A stretch of DNA of 52,178 nucleotides from NCBI GenBank assembly GCA_964617505.1, contig CAZTZB010000004.1, positions 1 through 52,178 of the forward strand, given 5' to 3'. Source of the stretch: an uncultured Peptostreptococcaceae bacterium (GTDB lineage Bacteria > Bacillota > Clostridia > Peptostreptococcales > BM714). A program made the translations under genes and the position numbers. Below the pieces are notes generated by a model. It searched no databases. It was not told where the DNA came from and saw only the letters and a program-made list of their open reading frames with translations. Of this stretch, positions 16,807 through 38,856 are shown one piece after another (positions within the stretch are counted from its first letter, which is position 1; each line of letters starts with the position of its first letter).

Positions 16807-19800
16807 TTATAGCTTAATAAATGAATCTTTGAAACTGTTTATTTCTTCCATAAATAAAATGGCTTCCTTGAGTTTTTTTTCAGGGCTTAGCTTTATACCC
16901 TTGAATCTGTATAGCAAACTCGGCTGCTCTCCCGCATGCAAATGCACTCTCGAACTGTATCTTCCAAGTATCTCTACAGCTATTTCAGGTCCGAAACTAT
17001 TTTCCTTTTGCATCTCGAACCGGTAAAAAACATCATTCTCCTTAATTTCGACTACGCCCATTTTACCCGCTAAAGCTTTTATATATGAAATATCCAAAAG
17101 ATTGTATACTTCCTGAGGCGGCGTACCAAACCTGTCTTCAATCTCCGCCTGTATTTCTTGGTAATCGTTTTTATTCTCAATTGATGAAATCCGTTTATAT
17201 GCCTCGAGTTTTAGAAGCTCATTTGATATATACTCATTGGATATATACGCTCCTATTTCTATTTCAATTGTAGTTTCAAGAGATTTTGTTTTTTTAACGC
17301 CCCTTATTCTCGCTACTGCCTCTTCCATCATCTTAACATACAAGTCATATCCGATGGCTTCCATCTGTCCATGTTGCTGGGACCCAAGCAAATTTCCGGT
17401 TCCTCTTATCTCCAAATCGCGCATTGCTATCTTGAACCCCGAACCAAGTTCGGTAAATTCCCTTATGGCTTTTAGCCTTTCCTCAGCCACAGAGCTAACA
17501 ATTTTATTCTTCTGATACATAAGATATGCTCTTGCAACCCTGTTGCTCCTGCCCACGCGGCCTCTAAGCTGATATAATTGAGAAAGCCCCATGTGGTCCG
17601 AGTTGTCTATGAGTATTGTGTTTACATTTGGTATGTCTAGTCCCGTTTCTATTATTGTTGTGCAAACAAGCACATCTATATCCTTATTCAAAAAATCTAT
17701 CATTATGTCTTCAAGCTTGCGCTCATTCATTTGCCCATGTGCATAGGCCACCTTGGCATACGGCACAAGATCAACAATCTTCCTTGCCACCTTACCGATA
17801 TCGTTTATCCTGTTGTGCACAAAATAAACCTGACCCCCTCGGGAAATTTCCTTAATAACAGCTTCCCTTATTATGCCGTCATCCCTTTCAATCACGAATG
17901 TCTCAACAGGATGTCTTTCATCGGGCGGATCTTCTATTACACTTATGTCTCTTATCCCTACAAGTGACATATGAAGAGTCCTCGGTATTGGTGTAGCAGA
18001 AAGAGACAAAACATCTATTGCGCTTTTGAGCTTTTTCAATTTTTCCTTATGTTTAACCCCAAAACGCTGCTCCTCGTCAATGATGAGCAAACCCAAGTCC
18101 TTGAAGCTAATATCACTAGACAACAACCTGTGGGTCCCTATTATCAAATCGACGCTTCCTCTTCTGAGTTCGTCTACTATCTTGTCCTGCCTGCTCTTGC
18201 TTCTGAAACGACTAAGCATTTCCACAGAAATCGGAAAAGGGCTCATCCTTTTCTGTGCAGTATTGTAATGTTGCTGCGCCAATATGGTTGTCGGAACCAT
18301 AATCGCCACCTGTTTGCCATCATTTATGGCTTTAAACGCCGCCCTCAGGGCAACCTCAGTCTTTCCAAAGCCTACATCGCCACACAAGAGTCTGTCCATG
18401 GGCTTTGGCTTTTCCATGTCCTTCTTTATTTCTTCTATAACCTTTATCTGGTCAGGAGTCTCGTCATATTCAAAGAGGTCCTCAAATTCGCTTTGCCAAT
18501 TCGTGTCCGGCATGAATGCATATCCACTTGCCGTCTCTCTTTTTGCATATAGTTCAAGAAGCCCATCAGTAAGGTCTTCGATTGATTTTTGCACTTTCTG
18601 TTTAGTTTTTTGCCATTCCACTCCGCCAAGGGAGTTCAATATTGGATTGGAATTGTTTGCTCCTAGATACTTCTGGATAATATCCATCTGATTTACTGGA
18701 ACATAAAGAAAATCGCCTTTTTTATATGCAAGCTGCAGATAGTCCTTTTTTATTTTATCGACCTCTAGCTGCTTAATTCCTATGAATTGCCCTATACCAT
18801 GGTTTTCATGAACCACATAGTCTCCAGGCTTCAAATCCGTGAAGCTCCCTATCGCTCTTTTCTTTGATTTTGACAGGTTTTTTTTATGCCTCTTTTCAAC
18901 CCCGAAAACATCCATTTCGGAAAGCACATTCAGTCTTCCATTGTCGTAAACAAACCCCTTTGAAAGTTGTCTTTTTGAAATCGCAATTGTCGATGGTATT
19001 AAAGACTTAATCCCATCGACATATTCACAAACTTCCAAACCCCTATTGAACAACTCCGAACGAAGCCTTGATGCTTTTTCATTTCCTCCGGCAAAAATAA
19101 CCGTCCCGTATCCCTTCGTTTTTAACTCTCTCAGGTCGCCGGTCAAGTCATCAATTCTTCCTTTAAACCCTATTTGAGGCTTAACTGAAAATTCAATGCT
19201 TCTCGAAATATTTTCAGTACTATCTATTGCTTTGTCCAAATAAATACATTTTCCAGGAAAAATCTCCGGCTTATATTCTCCCACCAATGAATGTTGCCCT
19301 GTTAGTATTTTGTTTTTCTCTAAATGAATTTTAAATCGTTCCAGAAAATCGTCATGGATAGCTTTTGCCCTTTGCCGTATTCTCTTTTCATCCATTAATG
19401 CAAAGACAGCGTCACTTTCAAAATATGTCAAAAAATCATCATGCTGCATATAGCAACTCAGATTGAAGATATCCCCGGTAACTATTCCGTTTTTAAGGCC
19501 ACCTAGTATTTCATCGTACTTTCTGCGAGACTCATAGCCAATATTTTCCCCTAGGGTCTCCATTTCTCTTTCTATTTTTTCAATTACACGCAGTATGGAT
19601 TCATCATCCTCTACAAATTCCCTCGCCGGAAAAATGACAGCATCCTTCCTTTTTTCTGTTGAAATCTGGGAAGATATATCAAAAACCCTTATTGAATCAA
19701 TCTCATCATCAAAGAACTCTATACGAAACGGCTTCTCGCTTTGAGGCGAAAACACATCCAGTATACCTCCTCGCCTACTAAACTGGCCCTTGATTCTTAT

Positions 19801-20280
19801 CTGGTCAACCGATTCATATCCAGCCCTCACCAATAACTCAATCAAACTCTCTATAGGGTATCTTTCTCCCCATTTGACAGTCACTATGCAGTCCCGATAA
19901 TCATCCGGTTTTCTAAATGGAATAAGCATATTGTCAACGGCAGTTGTAACAATAATGGGCTTGCCATTAAGCACATGTCCAAGCACCATGGCTCTTTCGG
20001 ATTCCGTTTCCCGGCTGTGCGCATACGCATCATAAAAGTTTATCTCTCTTCCGGGCAAAAAAAACACCGGCTTCTCGGTGAAAGTTTCGATATCTTTCGC
20101 CATTCTTTTAGCCTGTGCTTCGCTTTCGGTTATTACAAGAATCTGTCGATTTCCACAATCGGACAATAGAAGAGCTGCAAAGGAATCCGTTATGCCAGAA
20201 AATGCAATCTTCTTAATGTCTGATTTAAGCCATTCATTTATTTTATTTATTTGATTATACCTATCGACTTTCGGTATCAT
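16807..20280 (-). CDS. mfd: Transcription-repair coupling factor
   Basis: UvrB-homology module, CarD-like YVVHENHGIG, GDVGFGKT, DEEQRFG, QLRGRVGRS, TRCF C-terminus. Confidence 0.97.
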   Translation of the reverse strand: MIPKVDRYNQINKINEWLKSDIKKIAFSGITDSFAALLLSDCGNRQILVITESEAQAKRMAKDIETFTEKPVFFLPGREINFYDAYAHSRETESERAMVLGHVLNGKPIIVTTAVDNMLIPFRKPDDYRDCIVTVKWGERYPIESLIELLVRAGYESVDQIRIKGQFSRRGGILDVFSPQSEKPFRIEFFDDEIDSIRVFDISSQISTEKRKDAVIFPAREFVEDDESILRVIEKIEREMETLGENIGYESRRKYDEILGGLKNGIVTGDIFNLSCYMQHDDFLTYFESDAVFALMDEKRIRQRAKAIHDDFLERFKIHLEKNKILTGQHSLVGEYKPEIFPGKCIYLDKAIDSTENISRSIEFSVKPQIGFKGRIDDLTGDLRELKTKGYGTVIFAGGNEKASRLRSELFNRGLEVCEYVDGIKSLIPSTIAISKRQLSKGFVYDNGRLNVLSEMDVFGVEKRHKKNLSKSKKRAIGSFTDLKPGDYVVHENHGIGQFIGIKQLEVDKIKKDYLQLAYKKGDFLYVPVNQMDIIQKYLGANNSNPILNSLGGVEWQKTKQKVQKSIEDLTDGLLELYAKRETASGYAFMPDTNWQSEFEDLFEYDETPDQIKVIEEIKKDMEKPKPMDRLLCGDVGFGKTEVALRAAFKAINDGKQVAIMVPTTILAQQHYNTAQKRMSPFPISVEMLSRFRSKSRQDKIVDELRRGSVDLIIGTHRLLSSDISFKDLGLLIIDEEQRFGVKHKEKLKKLKSAIDVLSLSATPIPRTLHMSLVGIRDISVIEDPPDERHPVETFVIERDDGIIREAVIKEISRGGQVYFVHNRINDIGKVARKIVDLVPYAKVAYAHGQMNERKLEDIMIDFLNKDIDVLVCTTIIETGLDIPNVNTILIDNSDHMGLSQLYQLRGRVGRSNRVARAYLMYQKNKIVSSVAEERLKAIREFTELGSGFKIAMRDLEIRGTGNLLGSQQHGQMEAIGYDLYVKMMEEAVARIRGVKKTKSLETTIEIEIGAYISNEYISNELLKLEAYKRISSIENKNDYQEIQAEIEDRFGTPPQEVYNLLDISYIKALAGKMGVVEIKENDVFYRFEMQKENSFGPEIAVEILGRYSSRVHLHAGEQPSLLYRFKGIKLSPEKKLKEAILFMEEINSFKDSFIKL

Positions 20281-20860
20281 CTTCTCCTCCAGGTTCGCAA
20301 TTCATAGCGTTGTACTTGTTCATTGCCTTGTCGACACCCTCGGTTACAATCGTTTCAAGAGCTTCAGATGCCCAAGCAACCGTCCTACTTATTGGTTTTA
20401 TTTCGTTTTCATCAAACCCACCAAGAACATGTCCTATTATATCTTTGTTTCCAGATGACCCAATCCCAACCCTTATTCTCGGGAATTCATCGAACATTAG
20501 ATTGTAGATTATATCCTTCATACCATTGTGGGTGCCCGCGCTACCATTTTTGCGTACGCGAATTCTACCCAGCGGCGTATCTATGTCGTCATATACAACA
20601 ATCAGTCTGCTTGGCTCAATTTTATAAAAATTCACTATTTCACGCACGCTGTGGCCACTAAGGTTCATGAATGTCTGGGGTTTTAAAAGTATAACTTGTT
20701 CTCCTTGAATCCGGCCCTCTCCAAGAAGTCCCTTGAATTTTATTCTATTCATTTTAATCCCATGTTCTTTAGCAAAATTATCCAAAACTTCAAAGCCCGC
20801 ATTGTGACGCGTTCCCACATATTTTTTTCCAGGATTCCCCAGACCCACGATGATGTGCAT
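20261..20860 (-). CDS. pth: Peptidyl-tRNA hydrolase
   Basis: IIVGLGNPG, TRHNAGF, LKPQTFMNLSG, VVYDDID, HNG, RIRVGIG. Confidence 0.97.
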   Translation of the reverse strand: MHIIVGLGNPGKKYVGTRHNAGFEVLDNFAKEHGIKMNRIKFKGLLGEGRIQGEQVILLKPQTFMNLSGHSVREIVNFYKIEPSRLIVVYDDIDTPLGRIRVRKNGSAGTHNGMKDIIYNLMFDEFPRIRVGIGSSGNKDIIGHVLGGFDENEIKPISRTVAWASEALETIVTEGVDKAMNKYNAMNCEPGGEDDTESR

Positions 20861-20911
20861 TTGAAAACACCCCTTTATATCTCCTTTGTATAAAAAAAGG
20901 AAAACTGCAAT

Positions 20912-20938
20912 AAAAACCCCTGCTTAACAGGGGCTTTT
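20912..20938 (-). terminator. Intrinsic terminator after prs
   Basis: AAAAACCCCTG-CTTAA-CAGGGGCTTTT. Confidence 0.7.
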
Positions 20939-20949
20939 ATTGCTATACC

Positions 20950-21900
20950 TTAGACAAACAGATTGCTTACAGATTCATTCTTGTAAACTCGTTTCATTAC
21001 CTCTGCAAACAAAGGCGCCGCTGAAAGAATGGTCATTTTGTCCATTATCTTATCTTTGCTTAGATCAATAGTATCCAAAACAACCAATTCCTTTATAACC
21101 GAATTTTCAAGCCTCTCTATTGCAGGACCTGAAAGAATAGCGTGGGTACAGCATGCGTATACATCATTAGCTCCAAGGTCTTTTAGTGCTTTGGCTCCCT
21201 GTACAATTGTGCCGGCAGTATCAATCATATCGTCAATGAGAATGACATTCTTACCTTTTATATCCCCTATGATATTCATTATTTCTGCAACATTCGCCTT
21301 TGGACGCCTCTTGTCTATGATTGCTATCGGTGCATCAAGGCGATCCGCAAATTTTCTTGACCGTGCAACACTTCCAAGATCCGGCGATACAACCACCAAA
21401 TTTTCAATATTTTTGCTATTGAAATATTTCGCTAGAATCGGAACACCCATGAGATGATCTACGGGAACATTGAAATAGCCCTGTATCTGTGCAGCATGCA
21501 GATCCATAGCCAAAACCCTGTCCGCTCCTGCCTTTTCAAGCAAATCAGCCACCAACTTTGCTGAAATCGGATCACGCGCCTTAGCCTTGCGGTCTTGCCT
21601 TGCATAGCCATAGTATGGAATAACTGCAGATATGCTTTTTGCCGAAGCCCTCTTGCATGCGTCTATCATAATCAAGAGCTCCATCAGGTAACGATTAACC
21701 AAAGGTGGGCTTACGGATTGTATTAAGTATACATCTCTACCCCTTACTGATTCATTGATATTTACAGTTATCTCACCATCACTGAAGGATCCAACTTTAG
21801 CATCGCCCAATGGCAAATCCAGCTCCTCACAGATTTTTTCAGCCAATTTACGATTTGAATTTCCAGAAAAAATCTTAACCCGTTTACTTGCCTCTTGCAT
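20950..21900 (-). CDS. prs: Ribose-phosphate pyrophosphokinase
   Basis: [50 protein letters not shown]. True start ATG 21900; the track's longer N-terminus overlaps glmU. Confidence 0.97.
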
Positions 21901-25804: not shown

Positions 25805-25843
25805 AAATAAAGCCCCGGGGATTTTTCCCCAAGGGCTTTATTT
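25805..25843. terminator. Bidirectional terminator between murC and the ClC gene
   Basis: AAATAAAGCCC...GGGCTTTATTT 11-bp arms between convergent genes. Confidence 0.75.
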
Positions 25844-27149
25844 AGTCTATATCTATCAAATTGTCCCCAAGCGGTTTTGTATATATGCTGTACTTATGCA
25901 TGATTTCCATTGTAATGCTCCCGATGGCGCAAGCTATTAGGGACGGAAAGAGGATTGCAAAATTGTCTGTGAGCTCGGCAATCATTAAAGCCGCCGAAAT
26001 AGGAGCCTCTGCAAAACCCGCAAACATAACTCCAATACCTATTATCGAATATGTATTGCTGTTGAATATGAGTGTCGGGAAAAACCTTTCTAAAAAATTT
26101 CCATAAACGGCTCCGAAAGTCGCCCCTATGTATAATCCCGGTACGAACACCCCTCCGATTCCTCCGCTGCCTAGAGTCAAGAAGGTCGCAAGCAATTTGA
26201 ACACCAAAAGCATCAAGAGCAGCTTCATTCCAAATTCACCTTCTACAATCCTTGGAATCGTATCAAATTCAATGTCGTATATAAGTGGCAAATTGTATCC
26301 TATGATTCCAACAAGCCCTGCTCCGATTATGGGCTTCACCATTATCGGCAATTTCAACCTTTTTTCGAAAAATGCTTTCGTTAATTCAAGTCCTTTTATG
26401 TATATAAATGCAATAAGGCTAGTCGCAACTCCAAGCAAAATGTAAAAAATAATTTCACGATAATCCTTCAAACCATAGCTTCCTTTTATTATAAGAAAAG
26501 GTGTATGTCCTATAACAACCCTTCCTAAAAATGCTGCTGTTATAGATGAAATGAATATTGGTGTAAAATACTCAAAAAAATCTCTATTCATAAGAACTTC
26601 CATTACAAACAGAGCTGCAAAAACCGGAGCATCGAAAACAGCCGACAAACTTCCCGCCACACCACACCCAATCATTATTCTAATCTTCTTGTCTGAAAAA
26701 CCGGCCCTATATCCTATATTTGATCCAATTGCACCACCAAGATGAACTATTGGGCCATGCCTCCCTGCCGACAAGCCACTTGAAAGTGTTATTAAGGTTC
26801 CAAGCATTTTTATAAGCACAGTCTTGGGTTTCATTAGCATTCGGTTTATGTATTTCAGTTCTTCTATTACCTCGGTAACCCCACAACCTCTTTTGTCATC
26901 TTCAATGAGATATCGATTTATTAAGCCTATGGCTAGGCCCGCAAGCAAGGGTATGATAAAATACTTGGATTTGCCTAAATTAAACGATTGAGAGAAGGTA
27001 TTGTACAAAATGAAATGGAGGGCGTCCAAGAGCCAATTGAACAAAATCCCTCCAAAGCCGGTCAAAAGACCGACTAAAAGAGCCAAAAGAAAAATCGAGA
27101 GTCTCTCGAATCGCCCATCTTCATTTTTTTTGAAGGTTTTTTCTTTCAT
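25842..27149 (-). CDS. ClC-family anion transport protein (no CBS domains), non-canonical motifs
   Basis: ClC motif order present: GCGV, GRHGP, GVAGSLSAVFDAP, GGVFVP, EAPISA..MIAELT, IY. Confidence 0.85.
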   Translation of the reverse strand: MKEKTFKKNEDGRFERLSIFLLALLVGLLTGFGGILFNWLLDALHFILYNTFSQSFNLGKSKYFIIPLLAGLAIGLINRYLIEDDKRGCGVTEVIEELKYINRMLMKPKTVLIKMLGTLITLSSGLSAGRHGPIVHLGGAIGSNIGYRAGFSDKKIRIMIGCGVAGSLSAVFDAPVFAALFVMEVLMNRDFFEYFTPIFISSITAAFLGRVVIGHTPFLIIKGSYGLKDYREIIFYILLGVATSLIAFIYIKGLELTKAFFEKRLKLPIMVKPIIGAGLVGIIGYNLPLIYDIEFDTIPRIVEGEFGMKLLLMLLVFKLLATFLTLGSGGIGGVFVPGLYIGATFGAVYGNFLERFFPTLIFNSNTYSIIGIGVMFAGFAEAPISAALMIAELTDNFAILFPSLIACAIGSITMEIMHKYSIYTKPLGDNLIDID

Positions 27150-27305
27150 ATCCCTTCATCCCTCTTATAAAAAATTTTTAAAAAAAATGTTTAATATTAT
27201 TTTTTAAGGTTATATATATAATATCTTAATCCCTACTCCCCCTAAAATAATAGGGGCGGAAGAATCCGCTCTTGTTATTCTTTTTTTTTTGAAGCTTTTA
27301 CCAAT

Positions 27306-31103: not shown

Positions 31104-31122
31104 TCCATCATTTTCAACCCTG

Positions 31123-31299
31123 CAAATCAGCGCCTCATCAATACTCATGCATTGATGACAGTGGCATGCCTATTTGACATGTCCCCAACATGCGGAACCG
31201 TTCAGGCCAATTCCCCACATTTCGGCGGTTGCACCTTTCATGACGCCAAGCCTGACAAAACAGCTGACATTACTCATTACATCCGCACCTCTAACTCAC
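31123..31299 (-). ncRNA. Lysine riboswitch (L-box) upstream of lysA-lysC
   Basis: Minus strand reads AGAGGTGC...GAGTA...GAAAGG...GCCGAA...TTGGG...GCCACTGTCA...GAGGCGCT, the conserved L-box blocks in order, upstream of lysine biosynthesis genes. Confidence 0.92.
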
Positions 31300-31330
31300 A
31301 ATAGAAGTTCACATATTCATTTATTCGTAT

Positions 31331-31430: not shown

Positions 31431-31482
31431 TAATATGTAATAGTTGTTTCTTTTAATAAAACACAACTTAATATTCGTTTTG

Positions 31483-31668
31483 TGCGATCAGAGGAGCGAA
31501 TGCAATCAGTAAACCGATACGTCATGGGAAACGGTATCGATTGAAAGGTGCATTTGCCGAAACCGTTTTTTCCGCCCGGGAAAACACAGTTGGGATCATG
31601 TCCGAACAGGCATGGTACTGTCAATCACCTTAAAAAAGGCGATTGAAGCGCTTTTTGCATGGATGAAA
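31483..31668 (+). ncRNA. Second lysine riboswitch, upstream of the NhaC-family transporter
   Basis: AGAGGAGC...CAGTA...GAAAGG...GCCGAA...TTGGG...ACTGTCA...GAAGCGCT blocks in order. Confidence 0.92.
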
Positions 31669-38604: not shown

Positions 38605-38842
38605 CATAATAAAAGCCTTCCATCCAGCGTAAGGGACGAAAGGCGATTCCGCGGTGCCACCCTGATTGACATTTTCTGTCCATCTCGTTTTCGATATAAC
38701 GGTCGATACCGTCTGCGCCTAATCCTCACGTTTCGGACAGAAGCTCGGAAGTGTTATTCATCGAATGCTTCGCACCAGACTCTCACCATCTCCGGTTCGC
38801 TTAAGCTTCTGCAGCCGACTACTCTCTCCCTCATCGCTTTCT
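38605..38842 (-). ncRNA. T-box leader with Asn (AAC) specifier
   Basis: T-box AGGGTGGCACCGCG (38663-38650), specifier loop GAAU-AAC-A (38755-38753), terminator GCCTTTCGTCC...GGATGGAAGGC-TTTT. Confidence 0.92.
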
Positions 38843-38856
38843 ACTTCATCATTGCC

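Follow-up and report, generated by a model that had tools for sequence, protein, structure and literature searches.

The stretch of DNA analysed here, hereafter the window, covers positions 1 to 52,178 (in nucleotides, nt) of a contig from an uncultured Peptostreptococcaceae bacterium (CAZTZB010000004.1), and an open reading frame on its reverse strand (25842..27149 (-)) encodes a full-length ClC protein of 435 amino acids (aa), which we refer to as P0001. The gene is flanked by genes for an LCP (LytR-CpsA-Psr) protein and a convergent MurC, and the order of the region is lysA-lysC-LCP-ClC-murC-purR-(spoVG)-glmU-prs-pth-mfd. The Pfam family Voltage_CLC (PF00654) matches residues 71-413 of P0001 (E=4.7e-82; 276.4 bits against a cut-off of 24.8) and the match covers profile positions 2-344 of 346. 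A Pfam search of the protein detected no CBS domains, and 12 residues follow the central tyrosine, hence helix R is short. Public annotation of the family is the generic "chloride channel protein". An AlphaFold2 model, built from a 43-sequence alignment, reached a predicted local distance difference test score (pLDDT) of 89.3 and a predicted template modelling score (pTM) of 0.89. Foldseek matched this model to the exchangers ClC-ec1 and StClC with TM-scores of 0.83-0.87 over 426-433 columns; the top match was the E113Q/E148Q/E203Q form of ClC-ec1 (6V2J), by a negligible margin. Pfam, the AlphaFold2 model and Foldseek concur, and P0001 is predicted to adopt the full and intact ClC transmembrane fold.

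The pore motifs were placed by a HMMER alignment against all PDB chains and by a MAFFT alignment of 270 homologues and ClC-ec1, the ClC-ec1 numbering in the latter having been checked at five residues only; both alignments agree. The N-terminal motif of helix D, GSGIPE in ClC-ec1, reads GCGVTE in P0001 (G88-E93; 26871..26888 (-)): Cys89 (codon TGT, 26883-26885 (-)) occupies the position of the central serine Ser107 (Ser-cen), Thr92 that of Pro110, and Glu93 that of Glu111. The N-terminal motif of helix F, GREGP in ClC-ec1, reads GRHGP (G129-P133; 26751..26765 (-)), with His131 (codon CAT, 26757-26759 (-)) at the position of the gating glutamate Glu148 (Glu-ex). LFVMEVL (26592..26612 (-)) corresponds to LFIIEEM; Glu184, equivalent to Glu202, is kept, and Val185 (codon GTT, 26595-26597 (-)) stands at the internal proton glutamate Glu203 (Glu-in). 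Three further residues that matter below are Glu97 (26859..26861 (-)) at the Ala115 position, His136 (26742..26744 (-)) at the Gln153 position, and Asp173 (codon GAT, 26631..26633 (-)) at the Asn191 position, within FDAP.

The anion-site motif at the N-terminus of helix N is kept as GGVFVP (26139..26156 (-); GGIFAP in ClC-ec1), with Phe335 equivalent to Phe357, and so is the central tyrosine (Tyr-cen), Tyr445 in ClC-ec1 and Tyr423 in P0001 (codon TAT, 25881..25883 (-)), with SIYTK aligned on PLYSA. A loss of this tyrosine, suggested when Tyr445 was equated with a TDNY motif and seemed to have become Phe, was ruled out, as Tyr445 lies in KPLYSA, which aligns with SIYTK. Of the four anion-site motifs GxGxP, GxxGP, GxFxP and Tyr, three are thus intact in P0001, and the remaining one, GCGVT, keeps both glycines and has lost the proline. 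The initial annotation, made from the DNA alone, had read Cys at Ser107, His at Glu148 and Val at Glu203, with GGVF and the C-terminal tyrosine kept, and the DNA and the alignments bear out each of these assignments.

An intact orthologue is encoded in all seven genomes of the GTDB family, which consists of a single genus; the proteins share ~70-94% identity and all keep the Cys and the His. For six orthologous coding sequences (71-94% identity) the ratio of non-synonymous to synonymous substitution rates (dN/dS) is 0.04-0.09, with Cys encoded by TGT or TGC and His by CAT or CAC. The window lineage has reached saturation at synonymous sites relative to the other orthologues (proportion of synonymous differences, pS, 0.75-0.82), and synonymous variation of the Cys and His codons against this background indicates that selection holds both residues. 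The identical 435-aa protein was assembled on 7 contigs from at least three independent metagenome samples, and a His codon (CAY) lies two base changes from a Glu codon (GAR), so the residue is not a single-base miscall of Glu. The chance that the finding reflects a faulty read or assembly, a mutation of one strain or a pseudogene in decay is therefore negligible, given the intact frame across the genus, the low dN/dS and the independent metagenomes, and we found no point in favour of any of the three.

Homologues were collected in two ways: 5.8 billion proteins were queried through a word index, and 1.84 billion representatives were searched exhaustively with HMMER. The hit list splits sharply. 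On the near side are ~46 clusters of short proteins (394-442 aa) without CBS domains, which share 33-94% identity with the query; beyond the split are hundreds of proteins of 550-710 aa with CBS or TrkA-C domains and 30-36% identity. The short ClCs are monophyletic in a 104-sequence maximum-likelihood tree (Shimodaira-Hasegawa-like approximate likelihood ratio test, SH-aLRT, 100; stem of 1.01 substitutions per site), and the clade is again recovered in an outgroup-rooted 56-sequence tree (ultrafast bootstrap, UFBoot, and SH-aLRT, 100/100); the trees contained no eukaryotic channel sequence. Almost all members belong to the Peptostreptococcales. P0001 fits the definition of the clade in its length, its lack of CBS domains, and its residues C89, E97, H131 and H136, and the Caminicella sporogenes protein WP_072967386.1 is a relative of the Phe/Gln type, with Phe at Ser-cen and Gln at Glu-ex.

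No member of this clade has the gating glutamate. The 46 members carry Gln (27), Phe (10) or His (9) at the Glu148 position and never Glu; the 22 clade sequences taken from genomes show the same residue pattern, also with no Glu, and acidic residues flanking this position are absent throughout the clade. Had relatives retained GREGP, the His of the window would have looked like the peculiarity of one strain, and none of the clade homologues does. The Ser107 position is Phe (35), Leu (4) or Ile (1) in the 40 members outside the window's genus and Cys in the six from it. Glu is found at the Ala115 position (Glu97 in P0001) in 46/46 members, compared with Ala in 81% of out-clade sequences, and the Gln153 position is characteristically His or Tyr in the clade, with His (His136 in P0001) in 93% of members and Gln in 79% of out-clade sequences. 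Glu97 and His136 may represent titratable groups that have been relocated. Other clade signatures are the loss of Pro110 (to Ser, Ala or Thr), the replacement of Gly196 by Ala, and Gly at the Met360(Ser) position, directly after GxFxP. Beside these changes, G90, G129, G132, P133, G332, G333, P337 and Y423 are invariant in alignment A1, which comprises the clade and the outgroups, and G88, R130, K114 (Lys131 in ClC-ec1) and F335 are at least 90% conserved.

Comparison of the clade-wide residue counts with those of out-clade relatives shows which of these features are special. The absence of Glu-ex across the clade is distinctive, whereas Val at Glu-in and a residue other than Ser at Ser-cen are ordinary in this wing of the family. 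The Glu203 position is Val, Ile or Leu in the out-clade relatives, and Val there, although present as initially noted, carries little information when taken alone, since Val or Ile is also the rule in CBS-type relatives that have Glu-ex. We conclude that the clade is an undescribed group of ClCs without the gating glutamate that is selectively maintained. Our literature searches found no description of the clade, nor of a natural or engineered E148H ClC. The proposal of an uncharacterised ClC subclass is hence well founded (clade support 100/100; Glu-ex in 0/46), with the amendment that the unit of novelty is the clade and not the GRHGP motif.

One subclade lacks polar side chains in the pore altogether (P0145, P0148, P0162, P0190, P0177 and P0257; loci L049, L051-L054 and L057). 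Its members, which we term the L-F-V-F type, have Phe at both Glu-ex and Tyr-cen and Val at Glu-in, with Leu, Ile, Val, Met or Phe at Ser-cen, and are marked by a distinctive GGNFYPG motif. Judged by these residues, classical Cl- binding by this subclade is hard to envisage.

The proteins with Cys and His form a derived sublineage of six clusters (support 100/100; stem 0.58 in the rooted 56-sequence tree). This group is nested among Phe-bearing lineages, with moderate node support (94/81), which makes Phe/Gln the parsimonious ancestral state, and the changes from Phe to Cys (TTY to TGY) and from Gln to His (CAR to CAY) are single-base steps. Cys at Ser-cen is confined to the window's genus (0/265 other sequences). 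Similarly, Asp at the Asn191 position occurs only in the Cys/His sublineage, where P0001 has FDAP in place of FNAP; Asn stands there in 80% of the other clade members and in 95% of out-clade sequences. In total, the genus has exactly four non-conservative substitutions of its own at positions that are conserved elsewhere, and all of them (Cys89, Glu93, His131 and Asp173) lie in pore-forming motifs. The Cys is thus confirmed, yet it replaces Phe and not Ser, as this wing of the family does not conserve Ser-cen. His at the Glu148 position arose at least four times within the clade, three of these with Phe at Ser-cen, and it occurs sporadically outside. Repeated interchange of Gln, Phe and His at this site makes a special His-based pH gate, as first suspected, less likely than a plain loss of the carboxylate.

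A gene of the clade type is present in ~37/401 sampled genomes of the order, and ~70 others have a CBS-type ClC of 516-600 aa instead; among other Clostridia, a class-wide sample of 400 genomes yielded one clade-type match, of the Ile/Phe type. In each of the 25 carrier genomes scanned (25/25), the clade protein is the sole PF00654 gene product, and it must therefore supply whatever ClC function the cells need; P0001 likewise is the only ClC of its cell. The arrangement LCP...ClC-murC-purR was found in 14/22 loci, which span three GTDB families of the order including that of Caminicella and ClC identities down to ~31%. In 9/22 loci LCP is the immediate upstream neighbour and is co-oriented with ClC. 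In five more, which are all the Caminicella-family loci examined (L038-L042), it stands one gene further upstream, separated from ClC by a conserved gene of ~398 aa. The product of this gene carries a membrane anchor at its N-terminus and fits no obvious family. The remaining loci of the clade have unrelated housekeeping neighbours, namely GlnRS/NUDIX or RocB-like genes. The pattern of shared synteny points to old vertical inheritance and holds no clue to the substrate.

In ClCs the Glu148 carboxylate is both the external proton-transfer group and the gate, and without it H+ is neither coupled to Cl- nor in control of the transport rate (PMC2266597). Eukaryotic ClC channels become constitutively open when the gating Glu is neutralised, and channels always have Val at the Glu203 position (PMC2266597). 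As H+ coupling and gating need the Glu-ex carboxylate, uncoupled and passive anion movement is the likeliest activity of the clade: we favour, with moderate confidence, a proton-uncoupled, passive and electrogenic pathway for an anion, presumably Cl-, which would operate as a channel or as a slow uniporter. The ion pathway itself seems to be preserved, since the scaffold, Lys131 and Tyr-cen hardly vary although the coupling residue has been lost. We propose that Glu-ex became Gln in the clade ancestor and that the central Ser or His became hydrophobic (Phe), while the backbone scaffold of the anion sites (GxG, GRxGP, GGxFxP, Lys131 and Tyr-cen) was retained. The resulting transport would be akin to that of the E148Q/A mutants or of ClC-K and could provide the cell with a route for Cl- efflux or a Cl- shunt. 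Later, in the window's genus, Phe would have changed to Cys and Gln to His, with Asp173 and Glu93 added beside the pore; these changes possibly confer sensitivity to pH, redox state or metals, but a return to 2Cl-/H+ exchange through them is unlikely. The E148Q/A forms of ClC-ec1 are not true channels but slow uniporters. The suggestion in the initial annotation that the protein is uncoupled or pH-gated, or carries a different anion, holds insofar as the exchanger glutamates are missing; its pH gate has lost ground, and we infer the transport mode and the substrate.

Several points weigh against a passive Cl- pathway. Sequence cannot decide between "channel" and "uniporter". The bulky Phe at Ser-cen of the relatives could occlude the central site, and the subclade with the apolar pore fits Cl- conduction poorly, which hints at another substrate or another role. 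The titratable residues His131, Asp173, Glu93, Glu97 and His136 could together offer an alternative proton route. Finally, across the 22 loci we found no gene-neighbourhood clue to the substrate, the context being housekeeping and thus uninformative.

A different substrate is unlikely but deserves to be weighed first. The pore may have been re-tuned for another anion, such as NO3-, SCN-, HCO3-, formate or a small organic anion, or HS-, with or without coupling. This reading would account for the concerted changes of the clade in all three pore motifs (Ser107 to Phe, Leu, Ile or Cys; Pro110 to Ser, Ala or Thr; Met360(Ser) to Gly; and Gly196 to Ala), as well as for GGNFYPG and the missing polar side chains in the L-F-V-F type. 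ClC selectivity is known to respond to substitutions at Ser-cen, and a Ser to Pro change in AtCLCa gives a preference for nitrate. However, no neighbouring gene indicates another substrate, as 14/22 loci share lysC-LCP-ClC-murC-purR-spoVG-glmU-prs and the others are in housekeeping surroundings, and fluoride in particular is opposed by the lack of CLC-F motifs and of a fluoride riboswitch and by the CrcB that the genome encodes.

The residues specific to the window's genus invite a second proposal, slightly more doubtful: Cys89, His131 and Asp173, together with Glu93, would have arisen at the central and external anion sites in a single step of this lineage and would form a prokaryotic ClC channel that is gated by a thiol/imidazole pair in place of a carboxylate and closes or opens in response to pH, redox state or a soft metal (Zn2+ or Cu+). 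If this were true, such a gate would be useful to a strict anaerobe, and the Phe/Gln clade would be the first natural bacterial family of proton-uncoupled ClC channels or uniporters.

The same four residues could instead mean that proton coupling was re-invented, with His131, Asp173 and Glu93 as the outer proton site of an anion/H+ exchanger or of a strictly pH-gated protein. All of C89, E93, H131 and D173 are genus-specific, titratable or nucleophilic, and within pore motifs, and work by Lim and Miller in 2009 is said to have shown that Glu at the internal site Glu203 can be substituted by a number of ionisable residues, His among them. We nevertheless consider re-invented coupling improbable. 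The exchange cycle needs a carboxylate that acts as a Cl- surrogate in the anion sites, a part that, as we infer, neutral or cationic imidazole cannot play. The sister lineages with Gln or Phe cannot couple, Gln and His have alternated four times or more within the clade without the Asp and Glu changes, and there is no equivalent of Glu-in (Val185).

A scaffold that no longer transports and owes its retention to a structural, regulatory or sensory function, such as one tied to the envelope genes LCP and murC, is very improbable. In its favour, Phe occupies both Ser-cen and Glu-ex in some members, and the pore of the L-F-V-F type is fully hydrophobic. Such a function would also suit the LCP gene, which is adjacent and co-oriented in the nine loci described above and one gene away, beyond the 398-aa gene, in five more. 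But the anion-site motifs, Lys131 and Tyr-cen hardly vary, which would be difficult to account for if no ion were bound, and the adjacency to LCP and murC is restricted to related families, where it matches the vertically inherited purR-spoVG-glmU-prs synteny, whereas other members reside elsewhere.

The ClC gene is bordered by non-coding elements on both sides. A terminator-like hairpin with a T-rich tail (25813..25834 (-)) lies 8 nt beyond the stop codon of ClC, facing murC. On the other side, the spacer between LCP and ClC (156 nt) contains a conserved element (27155..27291, no strand assigned) that includes the presumed ClC promoter and leader. This 135-nt element is single-copy and restricted to the genus; despite the saturation of synonymous sites in the adjacent gene, its core retains 89-95% identity. 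The whole LCP-ClC spacer is 76-77% identical and the murC-purR spacer 71-75%, compared with 35-50% for most other spacers. A hairpin within the element (27246-27279) pairs fully only on the plus strand, where G-U pairs contribute and T10 comes next. This element may act as a terminator in both directions, or it could form the 3' end of a small C-rich plus-strand RNA that is antisense to the ClC leader. A search upstream of ClC for a riboswitch or leader reached no Rfam threshold, and the element shows no covariation.

Elsewhere in the window, an NhaC-type Na+/H+ antiporter (PF03553) and a small protein with a bPH_7 domain are encoded at ~19000-21000 (L058 3331-5393), which places them ~5 kb upstream of ClC; both are kept in congeners. 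Two divergent lysine riboswitches are located ~180 nt apart (31120-31301 (-), 93.9 bits; 31481-31661 (+), 92.6 bits), and a T-box leader is found at 38629-38843 (-) (112 bits).

All prokaryotic ClCs with solved structures are coupled exchangers (2025 large-scale ClC survey, bioRxiv 10.1101/2025.07.07.663545). How one fold yields both channels and exchangers is an unsettled question in the field, and the clade is a natural evolutionary experiment on it: coherent, under purifying selection, the sole ClC of its hosts, devoid of the coupling glutamate, and unusual at Ser-cen (Phe, Leu or Cys). The clade is suited to testing how a ClC functions without Glu-ex and whether His and Cys can gate a pore. 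Its proteins are small and free of CBS domains, and some come from thermophilic lineages (Caminicella), which suits them to reconstitution and structural work. Practical value is limited until transport is measured.

The best sequence matches of P0001 among solved structures are ClC-ec1 (E. coli ClcA) and StClC (1OTS and 1KPL; E 6e-36 to 1e-31), which are 2Cl-/1H+ exchangers with the same fold of ~18 helices and likewise without CBS domains. P0001 shares with ClC-ec1 the motifs GxG, GRxGP and GGxFxP as well as Lys131, Glu202 and Tyr445, and differs from it by His for Glu148, Val for Glu203, Ile for Glu113, Cys for Ser107 and Thr for Pro110; identity to the two exchangers is 22-25%, and helix R is truncated in P0001. 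The protein stays below the cut-offs of the NCBIfam ClcA/ClcB-type equivalogs (NF003640, NF002505 and NF002437; 201.3 against 350, 207.9 against 482, and 133.7 against 425), and both proton glutamates are gone, which agrees with the earlier view that by sequence it is not a classical ClcA/ClcB exchanger.

The closest sister group in the trees consists of prokaryotic CBS-type ClCs with GHGVPE and GREGP motifs (31-36% identity), for example the Methanobacterium proteins annotated as "ClcB". These relatives share with the clade Val or Ile at Glu-in and a residue other than Ser at Ser-cen, but they keep Glu-ex in 95%, have His at Ser-cen in 74% (of 225), and bear C-terminal CBS and/or TrkA-C domains. 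Independently, twelve out-clade sequences are without Glu-ex and have Val, Thr, Lys, His, Gln, Phe or Leu there. A 580-aa CBS-type protein (G431, L056) combines Phe at Ser-cen with Leu at Glu-ex.

The CLC-F fluoride/H+ antiporters (6D0J) are also prokaryotic, lack CBS domains and have a central site other than Ser. They differ in that they keep Glu-ex, carry the motifs GNNLI, GREGT and GEVTP, and are associated with fluoride riboswitches. None of these three motifs occurs in P0001, whose match to 6D0J (E=3.6e-9) is poor beside that to ClC-ec1 (~1e-31). Neither the window nor this genome contains a fluoride riboswitch (RF01734), and there is no Rfam match upstream of ClC; in relatives, fluoride riboswitches lie away from ClC, one of them just upstream of crcB. 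CrcB is encoded in this genome and in its congeners. A fluoride exporter of the CLC-F type, which the initial annotation had already excluded by motif, is rejected on all of these grounds.

Vertebrate ClC-K offers a precedent for passive channels, as it too lacks the gating carboxylate (Val or Leu) and has Val at Glu-in. P0001 resembles such channels in Val185 at Glu-in and in the absence of a carboxylate at Glu-ex (His131). ClC-K differs in being eukaryotic and phylogenetically remote, in having CBS domains and needing barttin, and in keeping Ser-cen (flipped), compared with Cys or Phe here. P0001 does not belong to the eukaryotic channel clade with its CBS domains, and its nearest relatives are all prokaryotic.

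The engineered E148Q, E148A and "QQQ" forms of ClC-ec1 (1OTU, 1OTT and 6V2J) are uncoupled from H+ and have an open outer gate. With its ancestral Gln at Glu-ex and non-acidic residues at Glu-in and at the Glu113 position, the clade is their natural counterpart. It differs from them in being natural and selected, in its hydrophobic or Cys residue at Ser-cen, and in ~40 more clade-specific substitutions, and the protein of the window has His in place of the Gln.

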